Shown here piece after piece: positions 9,410 through 38,050 of a stretch of DNA of 45,091 nt; the stretch's first letter is position 1; each line of letters opens with the position of its first letter. The translations under genes and the position numbers were made by a program. Origin of the DNA: Patescibacteria group bacterium (GTDB lineage Bacteria > Patescibacteriota > Microgenomatia > UBA1400 > PJMF01); assembly GCA_018816385.1 (NCBI GenBank), contig JAHIVK010000010.1:1-45091 (forward strand). The letters run 5' to 3'. Under the pieces are notes generated by a model, which did no database searches, was not told where the DNA came from, and was given only the letters and a program-made list of their open reading frames with translations.

Positions 9410-10717
9410 ATGTCTAGCCAGAGGGTAATTACTGCCATTGATATTGGCACCGACAAGTGTGTGACTCTGATTGCCATTCAAGACGGTGAAACAGAGCAAC
9501 TTAGAATTGCCGGATTTGCCGCTATCCCTTCCAAAGGCATGAAAAAGAGTCAGATCATTGATCTGGAGCAGGTGCTGTTAACCTTGAATGAAAGTTTAGA
9601 TGCCGCAGAACGAATGGCCGGTTTAGAAGTTAAACAGGCATATATTTCTGTAACTGGTGGGCATATTTCATCTCAAAACTCCCGCGGAGTGGTAGCCGTA
9701 GCTTCGCCCGATCAAGAAATTACCGCCGAGGATGTGACTCGAGTGATTGAAGCCGCCCGAGCTATTTCTTTGCCTTCGGACCGAGAAGTGATTCATGTCA
9801 TTCCCAAAGATTTTTCTGTTGACTCTCAAACTGGCATTAAAGATCCAGTGGGGATGACTGGCATCCGTCTGGAAAGCGAAGCTCATATTATCACTGGCCT
9901 GTCTCCATCCCTCCGCAATACCGAAAAATGCATTCACGACCTAGGCATTGAGATTGAAGGGTTTGTCTTTAGCGGATTGGCTTCTTCTCAAGTAGTCTTA
10001 ACCGAAACCGAAAAAGAGCTGGGTGTAGTGGTGATTGATATTGGAGCAGGTTCCACGTCCATGTCTGCTTTCGTGGATGGATCTTTGGAGTTTTCTTGCT
10101 CCTTGCCCCTGGGAGCCCGTCATATTACTCAAGATATTGCTTTAGGTTGCCGGGTGAGTTTGGATGCGGCGGAACGTATCAAAACTCACTTGAGTTTAGA
10201 CAAAACTGCCCAAATGATACCCCTACCTGGAGAGATCAAGCCTGACTTTAATAAACGTCGACGTCAAGCTGATCAACTTCACTTGAGCGATCTCAATCTA
10301 GGAGATGACTCCGAAGTCTATTCCAAAAGAAGTATTATTGATGGCATCATGGCTCCCAGACTCAGAGAGATCTTTTCGCTGGTGGGCGAAAAACTGGAAA
10401 CTAACCAATTATTTCCTTTGGTGCCGGCTGGATTGGTAATTACTGGCGGGGGAGCCAAAACCATTAGCATTTGTGATGTGGCCAAGAATACTCTCAAACT
10501 ACCCGCCCGAATTGGTCAACCTACGGCTATTCCAGGTCTGTTAAGTGATGTGCAAGACCCAGTTTTTGCCACTGGCGTCGGCCTGCTGGTTTTTGCTAGC
10601 AAACGCCTGGGTGGCGAAACTCACAATGGCTTTTCTTTCTCTGCCTTGACTAAAAATTTTTCCTTGTCAAAATTGAAACAACAAGTGGGCAAGTTTTTTA
10701 AATCCATTCTACCGTAG
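9410..10717 (+). CDS. ftsA: Cell division protein FtsA (actin-like ATPase)
   Basis: AIDIGTDKC, VVIDIGAGSTSMS and ITGGGA phosphate-binding motifs. Confidence 0.93.
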   Translation: MSSQRVITAIDIGTDKCVTLIAIQDGETEQLRIAGFAAIPSKGMKKSQIIDLEQVLLTLNESLDAAERMAGLEVKQAYISVTGGHISSQNSRGVVAVASPDQEITAEDVTRVIEAARAISLPSDREVIHVIPKDFSVDSQTGIKDPVGMTGIRLESEAHIITGLSPSLRNTEKCIHDLGIEIEGFVFSGLASSQVVLTETEKELGVVVIDIGAGSTSMSAFVDGSLEFSCSLPLGARHITQDIALGCRVSLDAAERIKTHLSLDKTAQMIPLPGEIKPDFNKRRRQADQLHLSDLNLGDDSEVYSKRSIIDGIMAPRLREIFSLVGEKLETNQLFPLVPAGLVITGGGAKTISICDVAKNTLKLPARIGQPTAIPGLLSDVQDPVFATGVGLLVFASKRLGGETHNGFSFSALTKNFSLSKLKQQVGKFFKSILP

Positions 10718-11306: not shown

Positions 11307-11522
11307 ATGCCAAAATATAATGTTAGAAAAAAGTTTGGCAAAAGGCTAAGAGTGCTTCGAAAGAGCGCTCAGTTGTCCCAGGAGGATTTGGGTTTTAAAG
11401 CCAATATCCACAGGACTTATATTGGTGCGGTCGAAAGGGGAGAGCAAAATGTCTCTCTTGATAATATTTACAGACTAGCCAAAGCACTTAAAGTTGAACT
11501 AAAAGAACTATTTATTTTTTAA
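11307..11522 (+). CDS. XRE/Cro-C1 family helix-turn-helix transcriptional regulator
   Basis: LRKSAQLSQEDLGFKANIHRTYIGAVERGEQNVSLDNIYRLAKAL is a classic HTH_3 pattern. Confidence 0.85.
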   Translation: MPKYNVRKKFGKRLRVLRKSAQLSQEDLGFKANIHRTYIGAVERGEQNVSLDNIYRLAKALKVELKELFIF

Positions 11523-11830
11523 TTAGTCTGCAAAAAGAGGGCTTGGTTTTTTATTTCCTGAGACAGTTTATAACTATCACAGTGCGATAAGTGACCCAAA
11601 TAAGATTGCAGTGCTTCTTCCAACGCTTCAGGAGGAAGGATCCCGTCTTTAATCTTTTGAGAGGTTTCAGCCATTTTTCTGAAGATTCTCCTTTTAGTTT
11701 TTGTTCTCGGTAAAATATATTTTGGAAAAATGACATATCCTAGGAAATCAACTCCCATGTAGTAATTTACAACATGAATCTTTTTTGGGTGGAGTGTTAG
11801 CTTTAATTCATTTCTTAAAAATTTTTCCAT
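11519..11830 (-). CDS. DGR reverse transcriptase, C-terminal piece (motifs 6-7 and thumb)
   Basis: LKLTLHPKKIHVV...GVDFLGYVI. Its ATG directly follows the in-frame TAA of the upstream piece. Confidence 0.75.
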   Translation of the reverse strand: MEKFLRNELKLTLHPKKIHVVNYYMGVDFLGYVIFPKYILPRTKTKRRIFRKMAETSQKIKDGILPPEALEEALQSYLGHLSHCDSYKLSQEIKNQALFLQTN

Positions 11831-12556
11831 TTACAATAAAATTTCTTGCAAGTATTTCTGATTGTCAGACATAACCACAAAATCATCTGCGTAGCGTATG
11901 TAGTATTTTGCCCTGAGTTTATGCTTTACAAATTGGTCCAGGGGATCCATGTATATGTTAGCGAAAAGTTGTGATGTCAAGTTACCTATCGGCATACCAG
12001 AATTTTGGTCTGGAGATTTAAAGCTGGTAATTATTTCTGTCAGTAGGTTGATAAAATTATCATCTAAAATTCTTTTTCTCAGGAGTTTAATTAACACTTC
12101 GTGATCCACGTTAGCAAAAAACTTTCTTATATCACACTTGAGAACAAACAAATTAGAAGTATTGTTTTTACTGGCTTTCCTAGCCATTCCGATAAATGTC
12201 TGAACAGCCTTGTGTGTACCCTTACCTTTTCGACACGAGTAGGAGTGAGGATAAAATGTTGGGTCAAAAATCTCCTCCAGCACTTTGCTGGTAAGGTGGT
12301 GAACAACCCTATCTTTTACACAGGCTTTATGAATGTGGCGAACTTTCGGATCCCTTACATAAAATTCCTGATACCCGCCATGACTGTAAGTTTTTTCTTC
12401 AAGCTCATTGTGCAAACTAAAGATGTTGTCTTCTAATTCCCGCTCAAATATTCCAACGTCCACTTTCTTTCTTTTTCCTTTGGCAAATTCTTCCCATGCT
12501 TGAAACAAGTTTTCAAGTGTTATAATCTCAGTGTAATTATTATGCCAGATTCTCAT
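11831..12556 (-). CDS. DGR reverse transcriptase, N-terminal piece (motifs 1-5), ending at an in-frame TAA
   Basis: YADDFVVM (YxDD) and the IGNLTSQLFANIY motif (I/LGxxxSQ, typical of DGR RTs). N-terminus is LENLFQAWEEFAKGKRKK. Confidence 0.85.
   Translation of the reverse strand: MRIWHNNYTEIITLENLFQAWEEFAKGKRKKVDVGIFERELEDNIFSLHNELEEKTYSHGGYQEFYVRDPKVRHIHKACVKDRVVHHLTSKVLEEIFDPTFYPHSYSCRKGKGTHKAVQTFIGMARKASKNNTSNLFVLKCDIRKFFANVDHEVLIKLLRKRILDDNFINLLTEIITSFKSPDQNSGMPIGNLTSQLFANIYMDPLDQFVKHKLRAKYYIRYADDFVVMSDNQKYLQEILL
12500..12526 (+). promoter_or_regulatory. Sigma70-like promoter TTGAAA-N15-TATAAT for avd, embedded in the RT 5' coding region
   Basis: ttgaaa at 12500-12505 and tataat at 12521-12526. 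The spacing is a little short. Confidence 0.3.
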
Positions 12557-12928
12557 AAAAACTTTGAACCGGGCAGGCTTAACTTAGACATACCGGTTTT
12601 TCAAAAAACATACGAGCTTTACAAATTCTTTTATCAACTTGTCGCTCATTTTCCTAAAAAGGATCGGTATGCTATTGGACAAAAAATTGAAAGTGGTCTT
12701 TTGGGATTGATAGAAGACATTATTACTGCCAGCCAACTTTCAAAGTCTGAAAAAGTACCTACCTTGCAGAATGCCAGTATCAAGCTTGATGTGCTTAAAG
12801 TTCTCATACGCTGTTGTAAAGACTTAAAGATTATTGATAACAAAAATTACCTCCTTCTTGAATCCAAACTACAAGAGATAGGTAAAATGCTTGGCGGTTG
12901 GATCAAAGCATCTACCTATCGTTCTTGA
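12542..12928 (+). CDS. avd: Four-helix-bundle protein (23S rRNA IVS protein family), Avd-like DGR accessory protein
   Basis: FQKTYELYKFFYQLVAHFPKKDRYAIGQKIESGLLGLIEDII pattern. Lies between the RT and TR but on the opposite strand. Confidence 0.75.
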   Translation: MPDSHKNFEPGRLNLDIPVFQKTYELYKFFYQLVAHFPKKDRYAIGQKIESGLLGLIEDIITASQLSKSEKVPTLQNASIKLDVLKVLIRCCKDLKIIDNKNYLLLESKLQEIGKMLGGWIKASTYRS

Positions 12929-12937
12929 ACCACTTGC

Positions 12938-12957
12938 AACCTGGGCAGGTTTTTTAT
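12938..12957 (+). terminator. Weak hairpin aacc-tggg?-ggtt followed by a T5 run after avd
   Basis: aacctgggcaggtttttt. The stem is short. Confidence 0.3.
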
Positions 12958-12970
12958 TCGTCGAGATAAG

Positions 12971-13095
12971 ACTACAGCGACACGGAAGCCAACGTTGTCA
13001 TTCGAGTTCGACGGATGATTCCAATTGGCGTTGGCGGCACCACCATTGTCGGAGTTGCCAACGATGACACGGTTAGGATCGCCGTCATCACGTTT
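12971..13095 (-). repeat. DGR template repeat (TR)
   Basis: Aligns without gaps to 13566..13690 (offset 595). On the minus strand it reads RDDGDPNRVIVGNSDNGGAANANWNHPSNSNDNVGFRV, with 9 AAC/AAT codons. Confidence 0.9.
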
Positions 13096-13489
13096 CGCAT
13101 TGCTTACTTTCTTTCCCGAAAAGGAGTTCAGTCCCTTTCGTTATTACCACTGGCCTCTTTAATGTACTACCTTATGTTTGTTGTCTTTTCCAAGATTGTT
13201 TCTAATTATTTAGAAACTCTCTCCTGTATTTGATTTGGCTCAAGGTTCCCTGAGTCCTTCAAAAGTAAGCAAGTAGTTTTATCTCTCCTTTATCAACACT
13301 CTCTTTGCAACCGTAACCACAAAGACTCTGGCCTTGCTCTAAAGAAGAGCGATTTTGTGAAACATAAGCGTACTCATATTTTCATTAACAAAATCTAAGT
13401 TGCAGTATAAAGAATGAAGGCACTAAAAATCAAGGGTAATTGCTATCTATAGACATCAATAAATTGAGGGCGAAATAAAATTACAAATC

Positions 13490-13506
13490 GACCCGCTACG
13501 CGGGTC
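13490..13506 (-). promoter_or_regulatory. GC-rich hairpin gacccgc-tac-gcgggtc downstream of the VR and the target-gene stop
   Basis: 7-bp perfect stem, about 47 nt past the stop at 13553 on the minus strand. Confidence 0.45.
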
Positions 13507-13552
13507 AAGGGACCAAGTAACAAAAATCCAAAAGAACCAAGAATTCAAGAGA

Positions 13553-16150
13553 TCAAGTTCCAAGAACTACAACGACACGGAAGCCAACGTAGCCAAGCGA
13601 GTCCGACGGACGAAGCCAACGGGCGCGGGCGGCACCACCAGGGCCGGAGTGGCCAACGAGGACACGGACAGGACCGCCGCCATCACGATATTCATCCTCA
13701 GTCCATTCATATGTATTCGTGCCAACCTCCATGCGATTTAGAAGCATATTTAGTTCAGCTGCAGTAGGCATGCGAACTTCTAAATTTGAGGGGAGACCTA
13801 GTTTGGATAAAATCTCTGATTTATTTCTTACAATATCTCCATGAGCTGTATCCCAAGTAACATTAAATCTATTAGTATGACCAAGCTCTGCACTTATCAT
13901 TGTTTCGTCATAGGTGTCCCTAGACATCGGTTTTGGCATGACCTCCGTAACAAACCAGCCTCCTTTGTTGTATATTTCGGGAAAGTCGATTTTTCCACTT
14001 TTGACTTCTTCCCAATACCATTTTCTAAGGAGTCTCCCCACGGTGTGATCATCCCTTTCGGCAGGAGATAAAGATTCGTACACTCGTAATCCTGGATATC
14101 TTTCTTCAATCCTGGCTAAAAAGTCATCAACATCCATTCTCCTCAAGTCATCCGGCGTGCCTATATCTAGCTTAGGAATACTTCTTACTCCAATGTGTTC
14201 AGTGTCGTTAGCAAACTTCTCAAGTGCTTCCAAGGGGATACTTCTTGGTAGTTCTGGAATCTCAAATACCGATCCGGAAGCTGGTTTCAGCTTATCTCTC
14301 CAACTTTGTTCCTCATCACGCTGAAATTCAGATGATGATGTGGTTTCAGATGAAGCTGTCCCCATTGGATTTTCACTGCTCAGTGCTACAGCACCTGCCA
14401 TTTCAGAGGGCAGCACATACCCTTTTTCTTCCGCTGGTTTATTTATTGTAACTTTGATCTCGCCCGAAGCATTAGTAATTAAATCAAAGGCGCTGAGGAT
14501 TTTCTGAAGTGTTTTACGTTCCTCCGGAGTGCTGAGAGTCTTTGGATCTCTGACGAATTCACCGAGTTTTGATTGCATATACTCGCCAAAATTCTGTCCA
14601 CGGGCCTGTGCAAGCTCCCATTCACTAAATAGCTTAAACAAGGTGCCGGGATCTAAAAAGTTCGTATTTAGTGTTGTCTCAGTGTTTCCTTGAGGGTCAA
14701 TACCCAGCGCAGTTTTTATTTCTGGCTTGAGGCCTTCAAAGTCTCTATTGTGGACCTTTTGCATCAGTTCTGCAGCTTTGCACAATTTCTCTATATATTT
14801 CAGCTCAGATGCCCCAAGTTTCAAAACGCCGTTTTCTTCAATGAGTTTGGCCAGGATAATATCATTCATTTCCGATGCGGGCATGTAACTTACTTCAACA
14901 CCCGTCAGCTCTCTCAGAATTGCCGGATCCATTTCCTCACGCTGTTTAGTACGCTCATCTTTAGGATTACCTGTGAGAATGGTGATGAAGTTTTCAGTAA
15001 TGTCAAATACTTGTCCATTAAATCCGGGTATTTGAATTTGATCACCAGGTTTTGCTCCCATCATGAACTTTTCTGCTAACTGAGTCCTAGTTGCACCACC
15101 AGTGTACTCATCACCAAGATATCCAACTCTTCTTTCTAAGGCTCTAGGAATGGGTCCTGGTCTTACAGCACTTTGAACATTTCCATCCTCACCTGTCCAC
15201 AATTCACGATAGCCAAATAAATCTCTTGGAGTTGTTCCTTCATGCCAGTTTACAATCTCGTATCCACCAGTAAGGGAGTTTAAAACATAAATTCCCAACT
15301 GGGTCTTGCCAGTACCAGTAGATCCAACTAAAAATATTTTGTTTCCTGCGATTGCCTCTCGTTTAATTCTATCAATGAGCTGAATCCTTGAAGGTGTTAA
15401 CACAACTCGAGATTCTCTGAGTTGCCTTTTATATTCAAGCAGTTTTTGTGTTTCTAGATAACCTAATGTTTCGGCAGAGGCCGTTTGCTCTATACCTTTT
15501 CGGGTTGACTCCAACCCATCTACCTTCCCTTGAAATTGAGTAATTTGATCTGCCGTACTTTGGACAAGCTTTCCATGATCTCGTTTGCTTGACAGATAGC
15601 GTGTATAAATAGCTTGTCGCAATTTACCCGCAACCCTGTCAATGTCACGCACATCCTTCATTGGCTTTCTTGCGGCTTGATAAAAACCGACTTCTCTTGC
15701 TAATTCTTCCTGAAACTTTTCTCTAACCTGAGGATGGGAAAGGATTTCTCCAATCTTGGTTTTTATTTCTTTTCGATGGTCAGGATTGTTTGTCTGATCA
15801 CTTGTAGTGTTATTGACCTCATTTTGGGAGGCGCCAGTAAAAACCTGTCGTACAGCATTAACTCTCTTATTGGATGAAAAAGAATCATCCAGTTGAGCCT
15901 CCAAATCACGCAAGCTTATATCGCCGTTAATTTGGATTTTGGAGGTGTCTCCCGCAGACGGACGAAAGTATTCTTCCATGTATCCCAGAACGGCAAAACA
16001 TCGATCTTCAACATTTTCGTTTGAAAGATGTTCTGGATTTTCTTGGAGGGGCAAGTTTTCTGTAAACCGGCTGACTGACAACGGAGCTACACGGTACCGC
16101 GCTTGTTGTATTTGTTGTGTTGAAAATGATTCAGACGATGATTCTGGCAT
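13553..16150 (-). CDS. DGR target protein: AAA+ (MoxR/AAA_5-like) ATPase with a C-terminal C-type-lectin/FGE-like variable domain
   Basis: Walker A LVGSTGTGKT, ILTGNP, DPAILRELTGVEVSY. C-terminal features VRMPTAAELNML, YEWTEDEY, and GFRVVVV at the end. The VR covers the last ~40 codons. Confidence 0.85.
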   Translation of the reverse strand: MPESSSESFSTQQIQQARYRVAPLSVSRFTENLPLQENPEHLSNENVEDRCFAVLGYMEEYFRPSAGDTSKIQINGDISLRDLEAQLDDSFSSNKRVNAVRQVFTGASQNEVNNTTSDQTNNPDHRKEIKTKIGEILSHPQVREKFQEELAREVGFYQAARKPMKDVRDIDRVAGKLRQAIYTRYLSSKRDHGKLVQSTADQITQFQGKVDGLESTRKGIEQTASAETLGYLETQKLLEYKRQLRESRVVLTPSRIQLIDRIKREAIAGNKIFLVGSTGTGKTQLGIYVLNSLTGGYEIVNWHEGTTPRDLFGYRELWTGEDGNVQSAVRPGPIPRALERRVGYLGDEYTGGATRTQLAEKFMMGAKPGDQIQIPGFNGQVFDITENFITILTGNPKDERTKQREEMDPAILRELTGVEVSYMPASEMNDIILAKLIEENGVLKLGASELKYIEKLCKAAELMQKVHNRDFEGLKPEIKTALGIDPQGNTETTLNTNFLDPGTLFKLFSEWELAQARGQNFGEYMQSKLGEFVRDPKTLSTPEERKTLQKILSAFDLITNASGEIKVTINKPAEEKGYVLPSEMAGAVALSSENPMGTASSETTSSSEFQRDEEQSWRDKLKPASGSVFEIPELPRSIPLEALEKFANDTEHIGVRSIPKLDIGTPDDLRRMDVDDFLARIEERYPGLRVYESLSPAERDDHTVGRLLRKWYWEEVKSGKIDFPEIYNKGGWFVTEVMPKPMSRDTYDETMISAELGHTNRFNVTWDTAHGDIVRNKSEILSKLGLPSNLEVRMPTAAELNMLLNRMEVGTNTYEWTEDEYRDGGGPVRVLVGHSGPGGAARARWLRPSDSLGYVGFRVVVVLGT
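13566..13690 (-). repeat. DGR variable repeat (VR) at the 3' end of the target CDS
   Basis: By my manual alignment of 122 positions, 22 differ from TR. Of those, 21 are TR adenines on the coding strand, changing 15 codons, all nonsynonymously. Confidence 0.9.
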
Positions 16151-16171
16151 ATTTAGTATTATACAAATTTT

Positions 16172-18850
16172 TTACAGTTTAGATAAGTGCTTCATAAGTA
16201 ACTTGTGCCTCGTGAGTGTTGCTTGTCTAACATCATCAATAACCACGGCAGCCTCTGAATCAGCTGGATCATGACAAACCACCTTAATATCTTCTGCAGC
16301 ACTGCCAAAACCAATCCCTTGCACAATTACACCCTGTGACCTCAGTTGAGTAATTAAGGCAACACATTGATCTTGACTCGATACATCTCCGTCAGAAACA
16401 ATCGTCAATATTTTACTCCTTTTTCCTTGTTTGATTTGCGCCAGCGTTTCTGGATCAAGAGAGTCTTGGTATTTTTGCAACGCAACAACCAACCCTTCTG
16501 AGCTTTGATTTTTAGCCTGTAACTCTCGATCCAAATCCACCAGTATCTTTTCTGACATTATGTCTTCTTTTTCCACCACTTCAGTTGCCCCACTACCAAA
16601 GGTTATTTGTGTAGATCGAATTTGTAGTGGCGTTCTCATCCTTGTTTTGTTTCGAGAATGTTGAAAACGCTCATTGAGCTTCATAATGTTATAGCTAGAG
16701 CTGAGAACCATCTTTTTCATTTCTTCCTCAGCGCTACCTGACATGGATCCAGAAATATCCAGCACAAAATCGTCATCGACTTCAAATACTTCTATAATTT
16801 CTTTTTGTTTTTCATAGCTTCTTTGATAGCCGGATGGGTCATCATCTTTGGAGCGAACATCAATGTAGGCTGTCACTGGATCATCTAGAAATTCACCCTC
16901 ACTTTGCCTGACTGGCCCCTTGTATGCCTGATATGGCACCTCACGTCTTTTGTATAAAAGGTCGAACAAATCACACCATTCCTGGTATAAAGTGCTAGGT
17001 CGCTTACGAATGCTCATTTCAGGAGGAACAGGTGTGTTGTTTATGTTATTAATCCAGCTCTCCAGTCTTTTCCACTGCACATAATCCACCCCTTTTTCTT
17101 TTTGAAATTGTTCTGCCGCACGTTGCTCTGGTGTTGGATCTGGTTGAGGTTTTTGATCTAAACCATCAATTAAGTCTTGGTACATTCGTTCTACTTCTTC
17201 AGGACTAAGCTCCGGTTGTTCTATTAGAGAATCACCAAAATCTCCATCAAGCGGCTGATTGGGTTCTGACTGATCATCTTGAAAATCATCCTTTTGCTTG
17301 GGAGGAGTTGCATCCATCCCTCTATGGGTCCACTTCTGACTATCTTTATTCCAAACTTCTCCCCAGGCATGTTTATCAACGCCCGGTGCCTCAACCACGG
17401 TAAAATCAAAACGAGGATCTTTACTGTTGATATAAGGACCAGTTGGAATTCGGGACGCAATCCCAAGGCGTTTACATAGTTCATCTCTAAAAATGTTTGC
17501 CCAGTAACAATGTGCTATCCCTGTCTCGGCAATTTTTGTCCAAAGATTACTACCCGCACTCAAATACGCCGCGTCTATTTGGCCAATTTCAGATTCATCA
17601 TTTGGATAACGAAGTTTTTTATGTATATATCGAACAATCTCTCGTGCCTTTTGTACATCGCTCATCCAATTTTGAGCTAACAGATCGTCAACAAGCGTTT
17701 GAGTTTCTGGATCAAGAGCTCCTCCAGTAGGAGAAACGTCTCGATCTATGGGAGGGCGGTTTAGTTTATTTGAATCATTCTCGCTCATCACAAAATCAAA
17801 AGAGAACTCAACAACTTCTGAGGAAACACTCCCAACTCTGGGTTCCAGTGAAATAATGCCTAATTCATCCCGCATTAAATGAAACGCGCCAGCGGGCTTA
17901 ATTGAACCAACAATTGGTAACGCTCCATAAGGAAGTTTTATTAGTGTTTCCTTACCTGGACTCATTTTTCCCCGATAATTTCTTTGTGTTTGCCAAACTG
18001 CCTCATCATCCAGAGGTTCTTCAACGTCCCATGTTTCTTTTACACCCGCTTCTTTAACAATTTGTTTTGAGTTGGGATCATAACGACAAACCTGTTCGCG
18101 ATAATATCCGCCATAAAAAGGATTAACACGTACCATAATGTCTGATTCTTGGATGGCTTCTTTGCTTCTTGCAACATCTTGTGTTTGTGATGGACGATAC
18201 TCAAATTGCTGAGAGCGGCCAGTTTGTCTGTCTACTTCCGATAATTCATCTAATAGTGGTTTCAGATACTGCTCATAATTTTGTCCATCGAATTTTAAGT
18301 AACGACCGGAAGCAATATAATCAACTAGGCTTTTCCCTTGGGGAGTAGGAATTCGCGAGATCGCGTCTTTGACTTGTGGTGATAACTCATCAGGGTATTT
18401 TCCTGTCAAAACATATGAGTCAAGTGCCCAATTGAATTCTTGCGAAAGTGTTTGGTTCTGTGGACCAATAGGACGGTCGTGAAGAACTTGTTGTCCACTC
18501 TCTCTCAGACAAGCCAATCCCTGCCAACGTAGAACTGGCTCTGTAGCATTTGGGTGTCTTTTAGAAACATCAATAAGCACATTTGCGTCTGTCCTCACTG
18601 CTTGAGTGAGACCAATGTGAGTAGCCACTTGCCTGAGCGCCGCAAAGCGAGCAGTATCTTCATCGGAATATAAAGAGGTATTTACTCTAAGTTCGGTTTT
18701 GTCTTCGCTCCAGGATAGCCTTGCCCCTTTATCTCTTTCTGTTATTTCAACTCCACCCAATAATCTATGACGCTCCGGCAGAGAGTTTTGATTCTGTTCT
18801 GGTATTTTTCTTTGAGATCGTTCATTCTCATTCATATCTGGTTTTTCCAT
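16172..18850 (-). CDS. Transglutaminase-like cysteine protease domain plus C-terminal von Willebrand factor A domain protein
   Basis: GIAHCYWANIF...GIASRIPTG...KHAWGEVW...GMDATP gives the Cys-His-Asp TGase core. VLDISGSMSG is a MIDAS DxSxS motif, followed by TIVSDGD. Confidence 0.8.
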   Translation of the reverse strand: MEKPDMNENERSQRKIPEQNQNSLPERHRLLGGVEITERDKGARLSWSEDKTELRVNTSLYSDEDTARFAALRQVATHIGLTQAVRTDANVLIDVSKRHPNATEPVLRWQGLACLRESGQQVLHDRPIGPQNQTLSQEFNWALDSYVLTGKYPDELSPQVKDAISRIPTPQGKSLVDYIASGRYLKFDGQNYEQYLKPLLDELSEVDRQTGRSQQFEYRPSQTQDVARSKEAIQESDIMVRVNPFYGGYYREQVCRYDPNSKQIVKEAGVKETWDVEEPLDDEAVWQTQRNYRGKMSPGKETLIKLPYGALPIVGSIKPAGAFHLMRDELGIISLEPRVGSVSSEVVEFSFDFVMSENDSNKLNRPPIDRDVSPTGGALDPETQTLVDDLLAQNWMSDVQKAREIVRYIHKKLRYPNDESEIGQIDAAYLSAGSNLWTKIAETGIAHCYWANIFRDELCKRLGIASRIPTGPYINSKDPRFDFTVVEAPGVDKHAWGEVWNKDSQKWTHRGMDATPPKQKDDFQDDQSEPNQPLDGDFGDSLIEQPELSPEEVERMYQDLIDGLDQKPQPDPTPEQRAAEQFQKEKGVDYVQWKRLESWINNINNTPVPPEMSIRKRPSTLYQEWCDLFDLLYKRREVPYQAYKGPVRQSEGEFLDDPVTAYIDVRSKDDDPSGYQRSYEKQKEIIEVFEVDDDFVLDISGSMSGSAEEEMKKMVLSSSYNIMKLNERFQHSRNKTRMRTPLQIRSTQITFGSGATEVVEKEDIMSEKILVDLDRELQAKNQSSEGLVVALQKYQDSLDPETLAQIKQGKRSKILTIVSDGDVSSQDQCVALITQLRSQGVIVQGIGFGSAAEDIKVVCHDPADSEAAVVIDDVRQATLTRHKLLMKHLSKL

Positions 18851-19078: not shown

Positions 19079-19114
19079 ATAAACTTGAAGTAGTATTTGT
19101 CAACAACTCAAACT

Positions 19115-20383
19115 ATGGCCCTGGTTAAACCTACCAACACCACTTTTGCCAAGATCAAGGTCGTGGGTGTGGGTGGGGGTGGTGGTAATGCCATCAACAC
19201 TATGATTGAGGGTGGTCAAATTAAGGGCGTAGAATTTATCAGTGTTAACACTGATGCCCAAGCTTTACTAACTTCCAAAGCCGAAACTAAACTTCAAATT
19301 GGCACCAACTTAACCAAAGGTTTAGGTTCTGGAGCCGACCCTGACGTAGGTAGAACTGCCGCCGAAGAATCTTACGACAAAATTAAAGACTTATTGTTTG
19401 ATAGCGACATGGTTTTCATCACTGCCGGCATGGGCGGAGGCACCGGCACGGGAGCTTCACCCATCGTGGCCGAAATTGCCAGGGAAAGTGGCGCTTTAAC
19501 TGTCGGCGTGGTCACCAAACCCTTTGCTTTTGAAAGCGCTCGCCGGATGCAGACTGCCGAAGAAGGAGTCGAAGAACTTAGAGAACATGTGGATGCTTTA
19601 ATTGTCATCCCCAACCAAAGACTGATGGATGTGGTCGATAAAAAAATGACTTTGACCGATGCTTTTAAACTAGCTGACAATGTCCTGGGTCAAGGTGTGC
19701 AAGGCATTTCTGACTTAATCACTATCCCCGGCTTAATCAACGTTGATTTTGCCGATGTCAAAACCATCATGACTGATTCCGGCTCGGCTTTAATGGGTAT
19801 TGGCGAAGCCAGTGGCGAAAATCGAGCCACTACCGCCGCCCGCATGGCCGCTTCCTCTCCATTACTCGAAATTTCGATTGAAGGCGCCAAGGGTGTCTTG
19901 TTTAATATCATGGGCGGACCCGACATGACCATGACCGAGGTTTCAGAGGCTGCCAATATTATTGCCAGTGCCGCCGACCCTGAAGCCAACATCATTTTTG
20001 GCGCCGCTATTGATGAAAGCATGGGTTCTAATATTAAAATTAGTGTCATCGCCACCGGATTTGCTGGCCGAGGTTTTTCTGTATCAGACAGACCTCACTT
20101 TGGTGCCTACTCCAAAGAAGCCAAAAGAAAGCTGGAAGAGGAAAAATCAGGACAAACCATTGATCGGACTCCCAATTCTTTTACCCAACCCATGACGGCC
20201 GGCGAGTTAAGTCAAACTTTCTCTCCATCCCCTCAAGTTTCCATTAATCAACCACTATCTCAAGATGCATCAGGTTTGGAAGATAAACCAAAAGATCAAG
20301 AAAAAAACAAACGATCGGGTTTTGCTAAAGTCTTTTCGGATGACTTCGAAATCCCAGCATTTTTGAGGAACAAGGGCAAGTAG
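19115..20383 (+). CDS. ftsZ: Cell division GTPase FtsZ
   Basis: [11 protein letters not shown] and [12 protein letters not shown] tubulin signature. C-terminal DFEIPAFLR peptide. Start set at the ATG at 19115. Confidence 0.95.
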
Positions 20384-20437
20384 ATTTTTCTATCGCAATC
20401 TGCTAGTGTGAGCTCAGTTATAAATCACTTTAAACAT

Positions 20438-20656
20438 ATGAGTAAAATTAACTTAAAAAATGTTGTCTGGAAAGAAGGCAAATATTATGTATCATGGAAC
20501 CTAAACACTGGAGTTTCTAGTTTTGGCGATACCAAAAAAGAAGCCCTTGAGTCTCTTGAGGAAGCTTTGGAGTTGCATTTGGAAGATTTTCCGGCTACGA
20601 AAATCACAAAAGTGGAAAGACCAGATATCGTTCCGCTTAATTTCCAATATGCCTAA
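20438..20656 (+). CDS. hicB: HicB-family antitoxin
   Basis: WKEGKYYVSWNLNTGVSSFGDTKKEALESLEEALELHLE. Overlaps hicA by 8 nt. Confidence 0.75.
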   Translation: MSKINLKNVVWKEGKYYVSWNLNTGVSSFGDTKKEALESLEEALELHLEDFPATKITKVERPDIVPLNFQYA

Positions 20657-20873
20657 ACCAATACCTCTTAAACGAGTCTTGAAAGTCCTCCAAAGTGAGG
20701 GCTTCTTTTTTGTCAAACAGAGAGGGTCACATGCTAAATACAGAAAAGTTGGTGAGCCTACAAGAAATGTAACGGTCAAAACCACAAAAAAAGAAATTCC
20801 TCACGGTACATTCCAATCGATTTTATTGCAGTCTGGATTAAAAGAAAGCGATTTTATAAAAGGAAAAAAATAA
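20649..20873 (+). CDS. hicA: HicA-family mRNA interferase toxin
   Basis: LKRVLKVLQSEGFFFVKQRGSHAKY pattern. Start moved to the ATG at 20649. Confidence 0.8.
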   Translation: MPKPIPLKRVLKVLQSEGFFFVKQRGSHAKYRKVGEPTRNVTVKTTKKEIPHGTFQSILLQSGLKESDFIKGKK

Positions 20874-20964
20874 GTCAAACTTCCCATATACCAAAATGTT
20901 AGGCAAAAATTAAAATTCTCTCCAATCAGCTGATTCTTTTTCTTTCCTGTGTTAAAATCTAGCC

Positions 20965-21255
20965 ATGACAATCCAAAACATTAACGCCAAGGTTATTCCC
21001 GTTTTGAAATCTCACGGAGTGCTTAAAGCATCCCTTTTTGGTTCTGTGGCCAGGGGTGAAGCAAATAAAAAAAGCGATGTTGACTTTTTGGTGGACCTTG
21101 ATGATGATAAAAGCCTACTTGATCTCGTAGACTTGAAATTAGATTTAGAGGAAAAACTTGGCAGAAAAGTTGATATTGTTGAGTATGCCGCAATTAAGCC
21201 GATGCTAAGAAATACAATCATAAGTGAACAAAAAGTGATTTATGAAAAAAGTTAA
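20965..21255 (+). CDS. Nucleotidyltransferase-domain protein (MNT-type), with no cognate HEPN gene
   Basis: LFGSVARGEANKKSDVDFLVD is the GSxxRGx...DxD motif. Confidence 0.8.
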   Translation: MTIQNINAKVIPVLKSHGVLKASLFGSVARGEANKKSDVDFLVDLDDDKSLLDLVDLKLDLEEKLGRKVDIVEYAAIKPMLRNTIISEQKVIYEKS

Positions 21256-21559
21256 ATTAGGTTTAGCTTTTGGTCTTGCTTTTGGGCTAATTGATGCATT
21301 GCTGATGTTGCCAATTCCCATGACCGATAAAGTCATTGCCATTCTTGGCGCTTCAATCAATCGTTTTGCTATCGGCTGGTTCATCCCTGTGACTAATTTC
21401 CCAAAGCCAGGCTGGATGAGGGGTTTAATGATCGGCACCCTTATCAGTTTGCCAGACGCCATTATTACTAAAGCTTATCTTCCGATATTAATTATTGGCG
21501 CGCTGGGCGGAGTCGGTTTAGGCTTATTATCAGATAGGCTAATACAAAGACATAGCTAA
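21242..21559 (+). CDS. Small hydrophobic membrane protein, about 3 TM helices
   Basis: Hydrophobic composition. Overlaps the MNT stop by 14 nt. Confidence 0.5.
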   Translation: MKKVKLGLAFGLAFGLIDALLMLPIPMTDKVIAILGASINRFAIGWFIPVTNFPKPGWMRGLMIGTLISLPDAIITKAYLPILIIGALGGVGLGLLSDRLIQRHS

Positions 21560-21595
21560 TTCTTTTTTGGCCATCAATTTGTTATACTTAACTTT

Positions 21596-21886
21596 ATGGA
21601 CAAAGATAAAATAAGAAAAAAAATCAGCAGTCAATTGCCTCTGTTAAGGCAAAAATATCATGTCAAAAAATTGGGTATTTTTGGCTCTTTTGTGAGAGAT
21701 CAACAAAGAAAAGGCAGTGATGTGGATATGTTGGTGGAGTTGACTTCTCCCATTGGTTTTTTTGATTTTGTACGTTTGGAAAATTTTCTAACTAGAACTC
21801 TAAAGCAGAAAGTTGATCTGGTATTAAAAAAAACCCTTAAGCCGGCTATTAAAGATGACGTGTTAAAAGAAACGATATATGTCTAA
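21596..21886 (+). CDS. mntA: Nucleotidyltransferase antitoxin, MntA-like
   Basis: IFGSFVRDQQRKGSDVDMLVE. Overlaps the downstream HEPN gene. Confidence 0.8.
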   Translation: MDKDKIRKKISSQLPLLRQKYHVKKLGIFGSFVRDQQRKGSDVDMLVELTSPIGFFDFVRLENFLTRTLKQKVDLVLKKTLKPAIKDDVLKETIYV

Positions 21887-22232
21887 AAGAGGCACCACAC
21901 TCTATCTTGAGGATATAAAAAACTCCATCGAAAAAATAGATTGTTATACCAAAGGTTTGTCTTTTAATAAATTTTGCAAAAACACTCTAGTGATCGATGC
22001 TGTGGTGAGAAACCTAACGATAATTGGAGAAGCCACAAAAAATATCCCCAAAGAAATAAAAGTAAAATATCCACAAAGCGCGTGGAGTGAGGCCATAGGT
22101 ATGAGGAACAAAGTTGCTCATGAGTATTTTGGCATTGACGCAAGTATCTTATGGAAAACGATCAAAGAAGATTTACCGATCTATAAAAAACAAATTGCAA
22201 AAATTTTAGACTCATTAGAAAAAAACGGCTAA
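21879..22232 (+). CDS. hepT: HEPN/DUF86 toxin, HepT-like
   Basis: RNKVAHEYFGID is the Rx4-6H HEPN motif. Confidence 0.8.
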   Translation: MSKRGTTLYLEDIKNSIEKIDCYTKGLSFNKFCKNTLVIDAVVRNLTIIGEATKNIPKEIKVKYPQSAWSEAIGMRNKVAHEYFGIDASILWKTIKEDLPIYKKQIAKILDSLEKNG

Positions 22233-34256: not shown

Positions 34257-34340
34257 TCGTCCGTAGCTTAAGCGTACAACCAAATCGTCCGTAGCTTAAA
34301 CATACAACCAGATCGTCCGTAGCTTTAACGTAGGACGAGA
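34257..34340. repeat. Three tandem 28-bp units starting tcgtccgtagctt, abutting the tRNA 3' end
   Basis: Units at 34257-34284, 34285-34312 and 34313-34340. The third can fold as tcgtcc...ggacga. Confidence 0.8.
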
Positions 34341-34412
34341 GCCAGGAAGGGGGATCGGACCCCTGACCTACGGTTTACGATACCGTCGCTCTACCGACTG
34401 AGCTATCCTGGC
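34340..34412 (-). tRNA. tRNA-Thr (anticodon CGU), with no encoded CCA
   Basis: Manual fold: acceptor gccagga/tcctggc, D stem gctc/gagc, anticodon stem acggt/accgt, loop atCGTaa, T stem agggg/cccct, T loop tccgatc. Confidence 0.8.
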
Positions 34413-34695
34413 AAATCAGATCTAAGATGTAGTATAGCTGGTTCAAAACCATTTGTCGCTTTGACTCGAGCTTAAATCTGATATTTGGTTTTGGGATTGC
34501 TATATATCAAAAACTATTCGTTAAATTACGACAGGTATTAAGGTGTTAGCGTTAAGTAGAAATGTCCCCTTTTTAAAAAAGCTTTCATAATTTAGTTTAT
34601 TAAATAACTAAAAGGATGGAGGCCCATAATGAGCGGTTATTTTAACCATGAGTAGAAAAGAAGGGTTAGTGTTTGCAAATAGTAGCTAGTCTTAA

Positions 34696-36411
34696 TTAAC
34701 TAAATAGACTTTCGAGTGATTTAATTATTTTGGTTGCTGTTTTAATTTTTGGTTTTTTAATTTTCCTTTGAAGTTTTTCAAAAAGTGGCAATTTATCCTC
34801 AATTAATGTTGGTTGAATAGGTTCTAGTTGAAACTTTTTGGGCGCGGAGATAATGGTAGTTGATGGATTTAGGCTCTGATTAGACTGCCAATAATTAATT
34901 TGTTCTAAAATATATGCCAAACCGTTTTCAAGATTGTCTTTGTCTTCTAAGCTGGCAATAAAAACAGGATAATCAAGGTCGTTATTTTCTTTTGAGAGTT
35001 TAATGCAAAATACTAGCGACATTTTTTGATTTGCTTGTTGGCTTCCAGAGGTAACAGTTCTAGTGGTAGTACCTTTATAAAAAATTCCTCTTGGAAGGCT
35101 TACTATGGCTTTTAGTTGGCATTTAGAAGAAATATATTTTCTTAAAAATTCATCTTGAGAATTGGCAAAAAAACCTTCTGGTAAAATTAAACAAATTCTT
35201 CCATTTGATTTACAACTTAAAATAGCTTGTTGTATTGAAAGGGCATATTCAGAAGGATTATCTCTCAAGTCTTTGTTGCCCATTTGTTGAGATAAGTGTC
35301 GGTATACTTGATCTAGATCATTGAGTGTATTTTCTGGATCATACTTGTTGCCTCCGGCTGGATTGCTTATCACTATATCCCAACCATTACCGTGGTTGAC
35401 TAAACCATTGGCTTGTTGAATTGGAATATTGTCAATTTCTTCTCCCATGATACCAAAACATAACGCCAGATAGGTTTTAGTAACATAATAGGGTAAATCG
35501 GCAATATCAATGCCCATAATATTTTCTAGTTTAACCCCTGAATTTATGGCCGCGCTAATAAAACTTCCACTGCCACATTCAAAATCAATCACTCTATCTC
35601 GATCTGTAAACTTGACCAAGTTTGCCATGAAACTAACAACTGGGCTGGGTGTAATAAATTGATTTAAGTGAATCCCCTGAAAGGCTCTGAGAATTTGGTT
35701 TTTAAATTCTGTGCCGATATCTTCATTTAAGGATTGTTGCCAATCATATTTAATTAAAAGTTCTCTAATAGCAAGTTGACGGTCGTGATATCCATCCAAA
35801 GAAACATAAGGCTGCTTTGAAACGTAGTTTGACTGGTTTTTTAAGAATTCATATATTTGAAGAGTAACATTTTTAATTATTGCTGGGGTCAATTTTTTGT
35901 CTTTACCCAAAATGTAAACTGAGGCAAGATCATAAAATAACTCTTTAAAAGTTTGTGGAGTAAGAATTGGTTTGTGAGACTCTATACCATAAAGTTTTTT
36001 AAGTTCTTCATAGGTAATAATCTTTTTTAGTTCTTCACTGTCATCAATTATTTGTCCATCTTTTTCATCTCGAAAATACTTATAAAATTTAATTGATCGA
36101 CCAACTGTAGTGGCAAAATATTTCGGAGGATGAGGAGAAAATTGAAGAAATCTAATGTATGAAATTGCTTGAGTTTTAGCATTTTGTTCTGAACCGTTTT
36201 TTCTTTTTGATTCAACTATGAGTAAGGGGCTTTTATTTGCATAGTAAACAATGTCTGGCTCTAATGAACGACCACTTCCAACCGAAATACTGGCATCAGA
36301 TTTGATTTTTAAATTTTCTCTATTTCCGGCTTGAGGATAGCCGTATTGAGAAAAGGCAGGAATAATATCATGAACTATGTATGAATCTTCTGATCGTTTG
36401 GTACTTGACAT
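34696..36411 (-). CDS. Fusion of an N-terminal PD-(D/E)xK (HSDR_N-like) nuclease domain and an N6-adenine methyltransferase-like domain
   Basis: EPDIVYY...LLIVESKRK near the N-terminus. Motif I VIDFECGSGSF. Motif IV reads ISNPAGG instead of NPPY/F. Confidence 0.7.
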   Translation of the reverse strand: MSSTKRSEDSYIVHDIIPAFSQYGYPQAGNRENLKIKSDASISVGSGRSLEPDIVYYANKSPLLIVESKRKNGSEQNAKTQAISYIRFLQFSPHPPKYFATTVGRSIKFYKYFRDEKDGQIIDDSEELKKIITYEELKKLYGIESHKPILTPQTFKELFYDLASVYILGKDKKLTPAIIKNVTLQIYEFLKNQSNYVSKQPYVSLDGYHDRQLAIRELLIKYDWQQSLNEDIGTEFKNQILRAFQGIHLNQFITPSPVVSFMANLVKFTDRDRVIDFECGSGSFISAAINSGVKLENIMGIDIADLPYYVTKTYLALCFGIMGEEIDNIPIQQANGLVNHGNGWDIVISNPAGGNKYDPENTLNDLDQVYRHLSQQMGNKDLRDNPSEYALSIQQAILSCKSNGRICLILPEGFFANSQDEFLRKYISSKCQLKAIVSLPRGIFYKGTTTRTVTSGSQQANQKMSLVFCIKLSKENNDLDYPVFIASLEDKDNLENGLAYILEQINYWQSNQSLNPSTTIISAPKKFQLEPIQPTLIEDKLPLFEKLQRKIKKPKIKTATKIIKSLESLFS

Positions 36412-36442
36412 ATGTTTGGTTTTATCTTATATAATGTCTTTG

Positions 36443-36481
36443 GATCGTGGAACACGATCGGCAAACCCCTCCGGGGGTTTG
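36443..36481. other. Two adjacent GC-rich hairpins (gatcgtg-gaa-cacgatc and caaacccc-tccg-ggggtttg) between DUF3800 and the methylase fusion
   Basis: Seen directly. They separate the overlapped four-gene operon from the fifth gene. Confidence 0.5.
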
Positions 36482-36488
36482 TTTCTTT

Positions 36489-37235
36489 TTATGGAAATAT
36501 TTTTAAACCGTAACCTAAAAAATCATCCTTTGGAAATTGACGATACATTTTAGGCTTGATAATTCTAAAGGCTAGGTTTTCTCTTTCAGGATAAAGAACA
36601 TAATTTGCTAAAGGGTAAGCAATAAGGTCACACAACTGAGTTCCAGCCACATTGGCTTCTTTTTTTTGAAAATCTATTTCTGTAAATCTATTGATCAATC
36701 TGTTTGAATCTACATATTGGGTGCCGTTTGAAATAATAATTTGATATTGATCATGCAATTTAGAGTCTTCGTTTTTCCCTCTTGCCTCAGCAATAACTTC
36801 AACTTTACAGCTCTTAAATTTGTCGGTTAGAAAAATTGTTCTTTCTAAAACAAAAGTAAGAGAAAGATCATAAGGATTGTTTGCTTGAGGCCCATATAAA
36901 TTAATCAGCTTGTCTTTAAGTACAGCGCATGCAATAACTGTAAATTCAGTTTTTTCAATTAGGTTATCTAAATCGTTATAAAAATCACTTCTTAATTTTG
37001 GATCGCCTAAAGACTTGAAAGCAAATTGCCATTTTCTAATATCTCTTGAGTGTAAAATAATATCGGTGTTATCAAAATATTTTAATTTGATTTTATTAAC
37101 GTTGGGGATAAATGTTTGTTTATAATATTCTTTTTCAATAACGCACCCGCATAATAATAAAATAGGAAACTCTTGTTTGGTTGTTTTTAATCCATGATGT
37201 CCTGATTCGTCTAAAAACAGGTAGTAATTCTTCAT
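36489..37235 (-). CDS. DUF3800 family protein
   Basis: N-terminal YYLFLDESGHHG and C-terminal GTQLCDLIAYPLA, the pattern I recall as typical of DUF3800. Confidence 0.65.
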   Translation of the reverse strand: MKNYYLFLDESGHHGLKTTKQEFPILLLCGCVIEKEYYKQTFIPNVNKIKLKYFDNTDIILHSRDIRKWQFAFKSLGDPKLRSDFYNDLDNLIEKTEFTVIACAVLKDKLINLYGPQANNPYDLSLTFVLERTIFLTDKFKSCKVEVIAEARGKNEDSKLHDQYQIIISNGTQYVDSNRLINRFTEIDFQKKEANVAGTQLCDLIAYPLANYVLYPERENLAFRIIKPKMYRQFPKDDFLGYGLKIFP

Positions 37236-38050
37236 ATAACATCCTTTCGTTCACCTCTAATCACCTGTTCTGTTTTTTCAATTAAATCATTCAGCATTTT
37301 TTCTGCTATTTGTATATTGTTTTGATACTCGGTTTCATTATTTTCCCTTTTTGCCTCCATCGCTTTTTCATGAAAATTATTCATTTTTAGATATTCTTTT
37401 TCAATATTTTTTTGGACTTTATCTGAGATTAACGGTATTTTTATTTCTGCAATACAATTTTGCGTGAGCTCCGTCTGGCCAGATACACCACTTTCATATC
37501 TTTCGATTTGTTGTTGTCCAAAAATTGTTTTTAAATAAGCCTCTACATAAAATGAGTTAATTTTTTTAAATCCAAGAGTATTAATATGTCCAGTAATTCC
37601 AATTTTTTGATTGATAGGTTTTCCAAGAAATAGAGAACTTCTTCCAATACTTCCTGCGCCACTTCTTACAATTAATATATCTCCATATTTTGGTTGAGAC
37701 TTAGATATTCTTTGAAAATGAGAATCGACAATTTGCTTTAAAGATGAGTAATCAATACCAGTAAACTTTATATCAATGACGCTTATCATTGGTATTCCTT
37801 TTGATACATATTTATCGCCTTTTTTTGTTCTTAAACCGTCACCTTGATTACATCTAGTTAAGTCTTTTCCCAACTTTTCTATTTTAAATTTTTTATCCAT
37901 CTCCATTAATGTTTTTTCAAATTTAGGATGCCAATAATCCGTGCTTAGTCTACTAAACGGTTTTTCGTCCATCATATCTTTTAGAGTTTTGTCAATTCTA
38001 ATCATTACTCCGTTTTTTTCATCTACTATCTGTTTTGTATTATTTGTCAT
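37232..38050 (-). CDS. Restriction-modification specificity subunit, HsdS-like with a single TRD (half-size)
   Basis: KGIPMISVIDI, YGDILIVRSGAGSIGRSSLF and GQTELTQNCIAEIKIPL, followed by a C-terminal helical region. Confidence 0.7.
   Translation of the reverse strand: MTNNTKQIVDEKNGVMIRIDKTLKDMMDEKPFSRLSTDYWHPKFEKTLMEMDKKFKIEKLGKDLTRCNQGDGLRTKKGDKYVSKGIPMISVIDIKFTGIDYSSLKQIVDSHFQRISKSQPKYGDILIVRSGAGSIGRSSLFLGKPINQKIGITGHINTLGFKKINSFYVEAYLKTIFGQQQIERYESGVSGQTELTQNCIAEIKIPLISDKVQKNIEKEYLKMNNFHEKAMEAKRENNETEYQNNIQIAEKMLNDLIEKTEQVIRGERKDVI

Follow-up and report, generated by a model that had tools for sequence, protein, structure and literature searches.

A mobile Patescibacteria gene cassette joins a retroelement-diversified, predicted MoxR-type ATPase to a transglutaminase-like peptidase-vWA partner

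The DNA analyzed here, referred to as the window, is the whole stretch of 45,091 nucleotides of contig JAHIVK010000010.1 (assembly GCA_018816385.1, positions 1 to 45,091) from a Patescibacteria group bacterium. It is a Pacebacteria-like chromosome segment with alaS, sortase, mltG, murG, ftsQ, ftsA, ftsZ, ileS, ftsW and parB genes, into which an insert of 8.4 kb has been placed between ftsA (9410-10717) and ftsZ (19097-20383). Along the minus strand this insert holds, in order, an 892-aa open reading frame (ORF), an 865-aa ORF, a repeat tract with a hairpin, a template repeat (TR), an inverted avd accessory gene and a reverse transcriptase (RT) gene. The two large ORFs run in the same direction on the minus strand, separated by 21 nt: the first (16172..18850) encodes a predicted transglutaminase (TGase)-like cysteine peptidase with a vWA domain, and the second (13553..16150) a predicted AAA+ ATPase that is the target of a diversity-generating retroelement (DGR). 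Homologues carry the names Candidatus Pacebacteria or Patescibacteria. The original prediction for this locus, which had placed a DGR-diversified AAA+ ATPase beside a TGase-vWA protein, is confirmed as an observation by the ORFs, their spacing, their Pfam matches and the repeats described next.

The variable region (VR) occupies the last 40 codons of the ATPase gene (codons 822-862; 13566..13687, minus strand) and is 82% identical to the TR (12971..13092, minus strand), which lies 595 nt downstream. Over 122 nt each, VR and TR differ by 22 mismatches, 21 of them at TR adenines and all at codon positions 1 or 2, and the TR encodes RDDGDPNRVIVGNSDNGGAANANWNHPSNSNDNVGFRVAV, an Asn/Asp-rich peptide with many AAY codons. 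Next to the TR come the avd gene (12500..12928, plus strand, likely start at 12542), which matches NF033474 DivGenRetAVD (5.4e-28), PF22296 bAvd (7.9e-24) and phrog_3206, and the RT gene (11519..12556, minus strand), which matches RVT_1 (1.5e-22) and phrog_1423 (1.7e-90) and has the IGNLTSQ and YADD motifs. This TR-(avd)-RT arrangement is the 'B3' layout, found in 90% of candidate phyla radiation (CPR) DGRs (Wu et al. 2018, PMC5758913), and together the TR, the inverted avd and the RT constitute a DGR by which about 20 C-terminal codons of the ATPase are rewritten. Its past action on the ATPase tail is recorded in the closest relative of the window locus, L009 (93% nucleotide identity), whose TR is 99% identical to that of the window and whose VR differs at 21 sites, 19 of which are TR adenines; therefore, mutagenic homing into the ATPase gene has occurred since these lineages split.

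The window RT does not have an intact reading frame, as an in-frame TAA at codon 242 (11831..11833, minus strand) cuts it into 241 and 103 codons. This is a polymorphic nonsense mutation: in the near-identical assemblies L010 and L012 the site is CAA (Gln) and the RT is an intact protein of 345 aa, while L011 and L013 also carry TAA. Stop-codon recoding was considered as the cause and rejected, given the CAA of the sister assemblies and the fact that the other window ORFs examined are uninterrupted under code 11. The nonsense codon knocks out the window RT, which most likely leaves a recently frozen DGR whose VR probably represents a frozen specificity, and the polymorphism provides a snapshot of DGR inactivation in which the target VR stays fixed.

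Directly after the stop codon of the ATPase gene starts a tract of seven TTG[G/A] repeats (13509..13552, minus strand) with a period of 8-10 nt. Its density, 7 per 70 nt, is the extreme of a window-wide comparison and is equalled at one other place only. The tract is followed by a GC-rich hairpin, GACCCGC-GTA-GCGGGTC, with a T-rich tail (13488..13508, minus strand), which was picked up by a terminator-like scan; an Rfam search of the locus returned no match. The same layout of tract and hairpin recurs just after the VR in the divergent loci L007, L008, L015, L016, L017, L026 and L032, and the hairpins found at this position in other loci have different stem sequences with their complementarity kept, as well as a loop of the form G-N-A. 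This hairpin could be a terminator or, alternatively, an inverted repeat, possibly extruded as a cruciform, by which the DGR recognizes its target. A GC-rich inverted repeat downstream of the initiation of mutagenic homing (IMH) site has been described (Wu 2018, PMC5758913).

The architecture of the DGR target was resolved with Pfam, conservation among 47 homologues, an AlphaFold2 (AF2) model, Foldseek and profile comparison. A helical N-terminal region (aa 10-250) precedes a MoxR-type AAA+ module at about aa 253-560, within which the AAA_5 family matches above its curated cut-off (aa 272-411, E 2.1e-7, nt 14918-15337). The motifs GSTGTGKT (the Walker A, at 15302-15325), ILTGNP and DPAILREL, which had been read from the sequence of this protein alone, are present and conserved in the homologues. 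The remaining Walker, sensor-1 and arginine positions are likewise in place, namely D347-E348, with E348 about 90% conserved, and N395, R404 and R413, which are invariant. The AF2 model (pLDDT 83) finds its best Foldseek match in NorQ (E 5.5e-11, TM-score 0.75-0.80), then CbbQ (4.6e-10) and then McrB, and the profile of the protein matches the AAA domains of midasin (1.1e-11). These comparisons bear out the predicted AAA_5/MoxR-like identity and classify the protein, as judged from its model, as a MoxR-type AAA+ ATPase. The AAA+ core is also the site of a separate observation: within 14950-15400 (codons 250-400) 150 of 450 nt differ from L009, against 1-3% in the rest of the gene, a recombination mosaic independent of the DGR.

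Beyond the ATPase module lie a conserved junction motif, KGYxLPSEMAG (aa 576-586), a disordered linker (aa 589-604) and a C-terminal domain of 255 aa (aa 611-865, nt 13556-14320) that is confidently folded in the model and has the VR at its end. Throughout the family, the N-terminal region and the AAA module form a chassis that aligns to about residue 590, and past this point, after the conserved junction, at least five classes of VR-bearing tails can be told apart that cannot be aligned with each other by BLAST. HHalign detects a weak relation between some of them (classes II-IV with 98% probability, I-III with 80%). The receptor tail is modular, mounted in its several classes on a constant ATPase chassis.

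The nature of the tail fold is where the original prediction, which had called it a CLec/FGE-like ligand-binding domain, could not be confirmed. The order of its motifs (RMPT..E, YEWTxDEY, RVxVG.S, GFRV) resembles that of lectins of the formylglycine-generating enzyme (FGE) type, and this is the sole resemblance. No Pfam match was obtained at E<=1 for 14 class-I tails and 8 other tails, two PDB profile searches gave no match, and a tail-profile search of 5.8 billion proteins found no homologue with the FGE-sulfatase family. Two fold searches gave lists dominated by AAA matches. The midasin-associated VR class 'UVR4' was left unassigned by Wu et al. 2018 (PMC5758913).

For the 892-aa partner, two Pfam families match above their curated cut-offs, namely, Transglut_core (aa 395-509, E 1.5e-6, nt 17324-17668) and VWA (aa 695-853, E 2.9e-5), the latter within a vWA region that spans aa 690-892 (nt 16175-16783), and a disordered acidic linker (aa 520-548) follows the TGase-like core. 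The putative catalytic triad consists of C448 (17507-17509), H494 (17369-17371) and D513 (17312-17314), which are invariant in 39 homologues, and the metal ion-dependent adhesion site (MIDAS), DISGS at 16745-16759, has its D698/S700/S702 (DxSxS) nearly invariant in the same set. Both the triad and a Dx[S/T]xS MIDAS are kept in 12 further homologues at 24-37% identity, and the pattern Dx[S/T]xS...D is retained throughout the homologues. Foldseek with the AF2 model (pLDDT 79.5) returned Rea1-MIDAS (6qt8, top for the vWA domain), the ANTXR (anthrax-receptor) vWA, TgpA (6g49, 5e-8) and NorD. The earlier assignment of a Cys-His-Asp TGase core joined to a MIDAS vWA domain therefore stands, and the conservation points to a TGase-like cysteine peptidase whose catalytic and metal sites are intact and under purifying selection.

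To place the pair in its genomic setting, we inspected the surroundings of twelve homologues together with 18 loci of GTDB representative genomes and a single IMG/VR contig, which amount to 21 distinct loci with both sides visible. Of the 18 loci from representative genomes, 14 are placed in CPR lineages by their labels and the other four carry automated labels of metagenome-assembled genomes. The TGase-vWA gene is accompanied by the ATPase gene in each of the distinct loci (21 of 21), at identities between 90% and 25%, so that the conserved co-occurrence on which the original prediction had staked itself is found. Two gene orders were encountered. First, the order of the window, TGvWA-AAA-TR-(avd)-RT. 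Second, AAA-TR-(avd)-RT-TGvWA, seen in loci of the Doudnabacteria type, where the TGvWA reaches only about 25% identity. In all loci but two, an adenine-biased TR is cognate to the C-terminus of the ATPase. No third component is conserved, as clustering of the neighbours recovers only serine recombinases, ParB-methylases, terminases and proteins of the type IV secretion system (T4SS) as recurrent. We conclude that this locus represents a conserved, mobile cassette that Patescibacteria carry in many copies of which it is one, composed of the TGase-vWA gene, the AAA-VR target, the TR with avd, and the RT, in which the TGase-vWA protein is an obligatory partner of the ATPase.

The same evidence bears on the notion that the two genes are accidental neighbours, with the DGR serving the ATPase and the TGase-vWA gene merely happening to lie upstream. 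What speaks for it is nothing beyond the fact that the association of the two products is itself a matter of reasoning, and synteny effectively refutes it: the co-occurrence spans 25-90% identity, and the link survives permutation of the gene order and moves between unrelated sites. Moreover, TGase-vWA proteins form a tiny family: among 1.84 billion cluster representatives, 368 belong to it, 76 of them at E<1e-30. We regard chance adjacency as scarcely credible.

Several further observations were made across these loci. In L001/L018 and L020 the TR is kept and neither RT nor avd is found nearby; together with L014 and L035, these loci outline a graded decay of the retroelement around a retained TGase-vWA/ATPase pair. 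Apparent 'naturally split' versions of the two proteins, seen at the P0031 locus as a 575-aa ATPase plus a 224-aa tail and as a 511-aa TGase plus a 327-aa vWA protein, were rejected, because the ATPase is separated from its tail by an in-frame TGA right behind which the junction motif is encoded, and this points to miscalling, under code 11, of a code-25 organism. The host of L033 and L034, which represent this locus, thus probably uses genetic code 25 (Gracilibacteria-like), and the public gene calls there are truncated. In the Peribacteria genome of L005/L021, a second, stand-alone target gene of 319 aa (12607-13566) follows the ATPase gene and has a VR matching that of the ATPase, and one DGR appears to serve two targets.

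Neither window protein shows a signal peptide or a hydrophobic segment compatible with a transmembrane helix, their maximal 19-residue Kyte-Doolittle means being 0.97 and 1.2 and their N-termini polar, as had been anticipated for the VR protein; nor do they carry the membrane anchor or cell-wall sorting signal of a surface or secreted adhesin. Hydropathy is low family-wide, one outlier aside, and both proteins are predicted to be cytoplasmic. This evidence bears on the conventional view of CPR DGR targets, by which the variable domain would bind the surface of the episymbiont's host cell. Reviews generally expect CPR DGRs to serve such attachment (PMC10221324, PMC8867640), and a C-terminal VR fit for ligand binding is present here. 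However, the lack of export signals in the two window proteins and the low hydropathy of their relatives go against it, and an ATP-dependent AAA+ module together with a MoxR-vWA pairing implies a cytoplasmic machine. Attachment to a host cell is, in our judgement, very improbable for this family.

The cassette is horizontally mobile. It occupies different insertion sites in close relatives, and it was found in the following settings. First, in L007 it lies within the head-morphogenesis module of a prophage, in the order terminase, portal, minor capsid, cassette, major capsid and tail, and in L032, an IMG/VR phage contig, it comes after the tail genes and adjoins an EcoRI-type methylase and a GmrSD-HNH nuclease. 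Second, in L004 and L008 it resides inside integrative and conjugative elements (ICEs) with T4SS, relaxase and serine recombinase genes. Third, it adjoins McrBC in L038 and a HEPN protein in L009, has terminase, ParB-methylase, SNF2-methylase and resolvase genes nearby in L005, and in the window is accompanied by HicA and two HEPN-MNT pairs beyond ftsZ. Since the cassette is mobile and both close and distant relatives of it occupy unrelated genomic sites, its position between ftsA and ftsZ is incidental, and we dismissed a functional tie to cell division. The context favors a role in defence or counter-defence, which is unproven. The conflict or sensing function that had been suggested for the locus accordingly finds backing in the prophage, ICE and defence-island settings, but the function is reasoned from them, and the profile search for known defence systems considered below gave no match.

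The same settings would also suit a weapon of the mobile elements themselves. In such a case the cassette would serve its phage or ICE, maybe delivered together with the element, and its binder, remodeller and protease activities would neutralize the defences of the recipient or exclude competitors. The embedding of the cassette in a prophage head module, a phage contig and ICE T4SS clusters, and the recurrence of mobile hallmarks among its neighbours, are what this explanation would predict. Yet defence genes are likewise typical cargo of these elements, which makes the context non-discriminating; mobile hallmarks are absent within 10 kb of several copies, and the cassette was found on a single IMG/VR contig (L032) and in none of the GenBank phages searched. 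We therefore rate a weapon carried for the benefit of the element as unlikely, albeit the strongest of the rival explanations.

Other features of the window and of related neighbourhoods deserve mention. A small toxin-antitoxin cluster at 20408-22232, between ftsZ and ileS, contains HicA with its partner and the two HEPN/HepT-MNT pairs, and this cluster together with the DGR cassette marks the division-gene cluster as a hotspot for accessory genes. Farther along, a low-GC island (34339-41955; 29-35% versus about 42%) adjoins tRNA-Thr. Besides three other ORFs, it holds the genes for an Eco57I-like N6 methylase of 571 aa and for a SNF2-family helicase of 974 aa, and it may be an integrated element for restriction or defence. 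In addition, a 120-aa stand-alone response-regulator receiver gene lies directly upstream of the cassette in L002/L016 (9254-9616, with a histidine kinase) and in the prophage of L007 (5662-6024). Its presence in two unrelated contexts may be a coincidence or reflect a regulatory input.

A last rival concerns regulation and proteostasis. The tail could pick endogenous clients for remodelling or cleavage, and the genome-reduced symbiont could thereby readjust pathways of its own, a role that has been proposed for DGR targets in cyanobacteria. This would agree with the characterized MoxR-vWA pairs (NorQD, CbbQO, midasin), which are maturation or remodelling chaperones (PMC7159879), with the two-component regulators that adjoin some loci and with the predicted cytoplasmic location of both proteins. 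A housekeeping role, however, is a poor fit to the patchy and mobile distribution of the cassette, to its differing insertion sites in close relatives and to the frequent loss of the RT. Tuning of the cell's own pathways is thus distinctly unlikely.

Rather, the cassette probably acts as a programmable machine for sensing or defence. By analogy with NorQ-NorD, CbbQ-CbbO and midasin, the ATPase and its partner would form a MoxR-vWA machine in which the vWA protein acts as an adaptor docked on an ATPase hexamer, and the six hypervariable tails, held on flexible linkers, would make up a programmable ligand receptor. The ligand bound in the cytoplasm would most likely be a protein of a phage or of a rival mobile element, and binding may be coupled through the ATPase to the output, namely, the vWA-tethered TGase-like peptidase, which would either cleave the captured ligand or trigger a response. 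Taken as a whole, the explanation that we prefer, a conserved mobile DGR cassette encoding a two-protein MoxR-vWA-peptidase sensor whose VR is frozen in the window, seems to us evenly poised between right and wrong.

A number of observations weigh against this explanation. In L035 the pair has a tail without VR and no DGR, and L014 shows no TR. Several copies, in L002, L039 and the window itself, sit in ordinary chromosomal neighbourhoods, and a profile search with PADLOC 2.0 gave no match for either protein, the RT matching generic RT models only. Five near-identical assemblies share one and the same VR, three of them with a broken RT, so that current diversification is not shown here, and the C-type-lectin fold of the VR domain remains unconfirmed. 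Finally, we infer both the physical association of the two proteins and the substrate of the protease, by analogy with the systems named above. The interpretation offered by the original prediction is, overall, partly supported.

Patescibacteria are poor in CRISPR. It is tempting to speculate that these bacteria, together with their phages and conjugative elements, carry a self-contained and mobile 'anticipatory receptor' module, that is, a two-protein MoxR-vWA-peptidase machine with specificity written by a retroelement and with swappable receptor domains, a machine that often sheds its retroelement after a useful specificity has been fixed. We advance this broader idea tentatively, leaning towards doubt. 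If true, the smallest known bacteria would possess an antibody-like form of intracellular recognition, with a mechanism distinct from that of the ternary systems in multicellular bacteria.

As for what was known before, an AAA ATPase fused to a variable domain has been reported as the commonest architecture of DGR targets in CPR (Paul 2017, as cited in PMC10907252), and midasin-like AAA targets ('UVR4') were noted by Wu 2018 (PMC5758913), according to whom essentially nothing was known about links between CPR DGRs and phages. The window protein is a member of this target class, with which it shares the phylum, the B3 cassette and a midasin/AAA_5-like ATPase with a C-terminal VR. In contrast, the accessible accounts of such targets do not describe a TGase-vWA partner, a MoxR-vWA logic, swapped tail classes or carriage by phages and ICEs. 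DGR-diversified sensors in MoxR-vWA systems have been reported as well (Kaur 2020, PMC7159879; Dore 2024, PMC10907252). The supposition that the combination of genes at this locus was unfamiliar is therefore only partly right: AAA-fused targets and DGR-bearing MoxR-vWA systems were already on record, while in the literature, which was incompletely covered, we found no description of an obligatory TGase-vWA partner, of the inverted domain topology, of modular tail swapping or of phage and ICE carriage. The TGase-vWA partner thus appears to be new to the literature. The role of the AAA-fused variable proteins of CPR had hitherto been guessed from a single domain, and the obligatory partner, the joint travel on phages, ICEs and defence islands, and the modular tail now recast this 'AAA-CLec' orphan as a defined machine of two proteins whose parts can be tested. 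These findings argue that much of the hypervariation of CPR is aimed at intracellular ligands and not at attachment to host cells.

Among characterized systems, NorQ-NorD and CbbQ-CbbO are the best structural matches, NorQ and CbbQ for the ATPase and NorD for the vWA domain, and they are likewise encoded by adjacent genes; they differ in having fixed clients (NO reductase and Rubisco) and neither variable domain nor peptidase nor retroelement. Midasin (Rea1), with its AAA_5 ring and C-terminal MIDAS, gives the best profile match for the ATPase and the top fold match for the vWA domain, such that the cassette resembles a split midasin, but it is a eukaryotic, single-chain, hexa-AAA protein of ribosome biogenesis. 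TgpA of Pseudomonas provides a top fold match for the TGase-like domain of the partner, and its operon also encodes a MoxR ATPase and a DUF58 protein. Unlike the window protein, TgpA resides in the membrane, its TGase domain is periplasmic, and it has no DGR and no vWA fusion.

The closest comparison is with the MoxR-vWA-VMAP 'ternary' systems of cyanobacteria and gammaproteobacteria (PMC7159879, PMC10907252), which have in common with the cassette a MoxR-clade ATPase, a MIDAS vWA protein, a peptidase and a DGR-diversified C-terminal binding domain, and for which intracellular invader sensing has been proposed, as it is here. The differences are as follows, and the first two concern defining features by which the cassette falls outside the class. 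First, the ternary systems consist of three proteins and the cassette of two; no third, VMAP-like gene recurs beside the pair in the contexts inspected, where no search with VMAP profiles was made. Second, the variable FGS domain of the ternary systems is borne by the vWA protein, whereas in the cassette the VR is on the ATPase. Third, their peptidase is a trypsin or caspase domain on VMAP, whereas the TGase-like peptidase of the cassette is fused to the vWA domain. Fourth, the cassette is hosted by unicellular, genome-reduced bacteria and has an RT of CPR lineage. The cassette may thus be seen as a two-protein relative of the ternary systems in which the ATPase has taken over the sensor and the vWA protein the peptidase, a rewired variant that, by analogy, would work in the same manner, and it links the DGRs of CPR with the conflict systems of MoxR-vWA type known from cyanobacteria and gammaproteobacteria.

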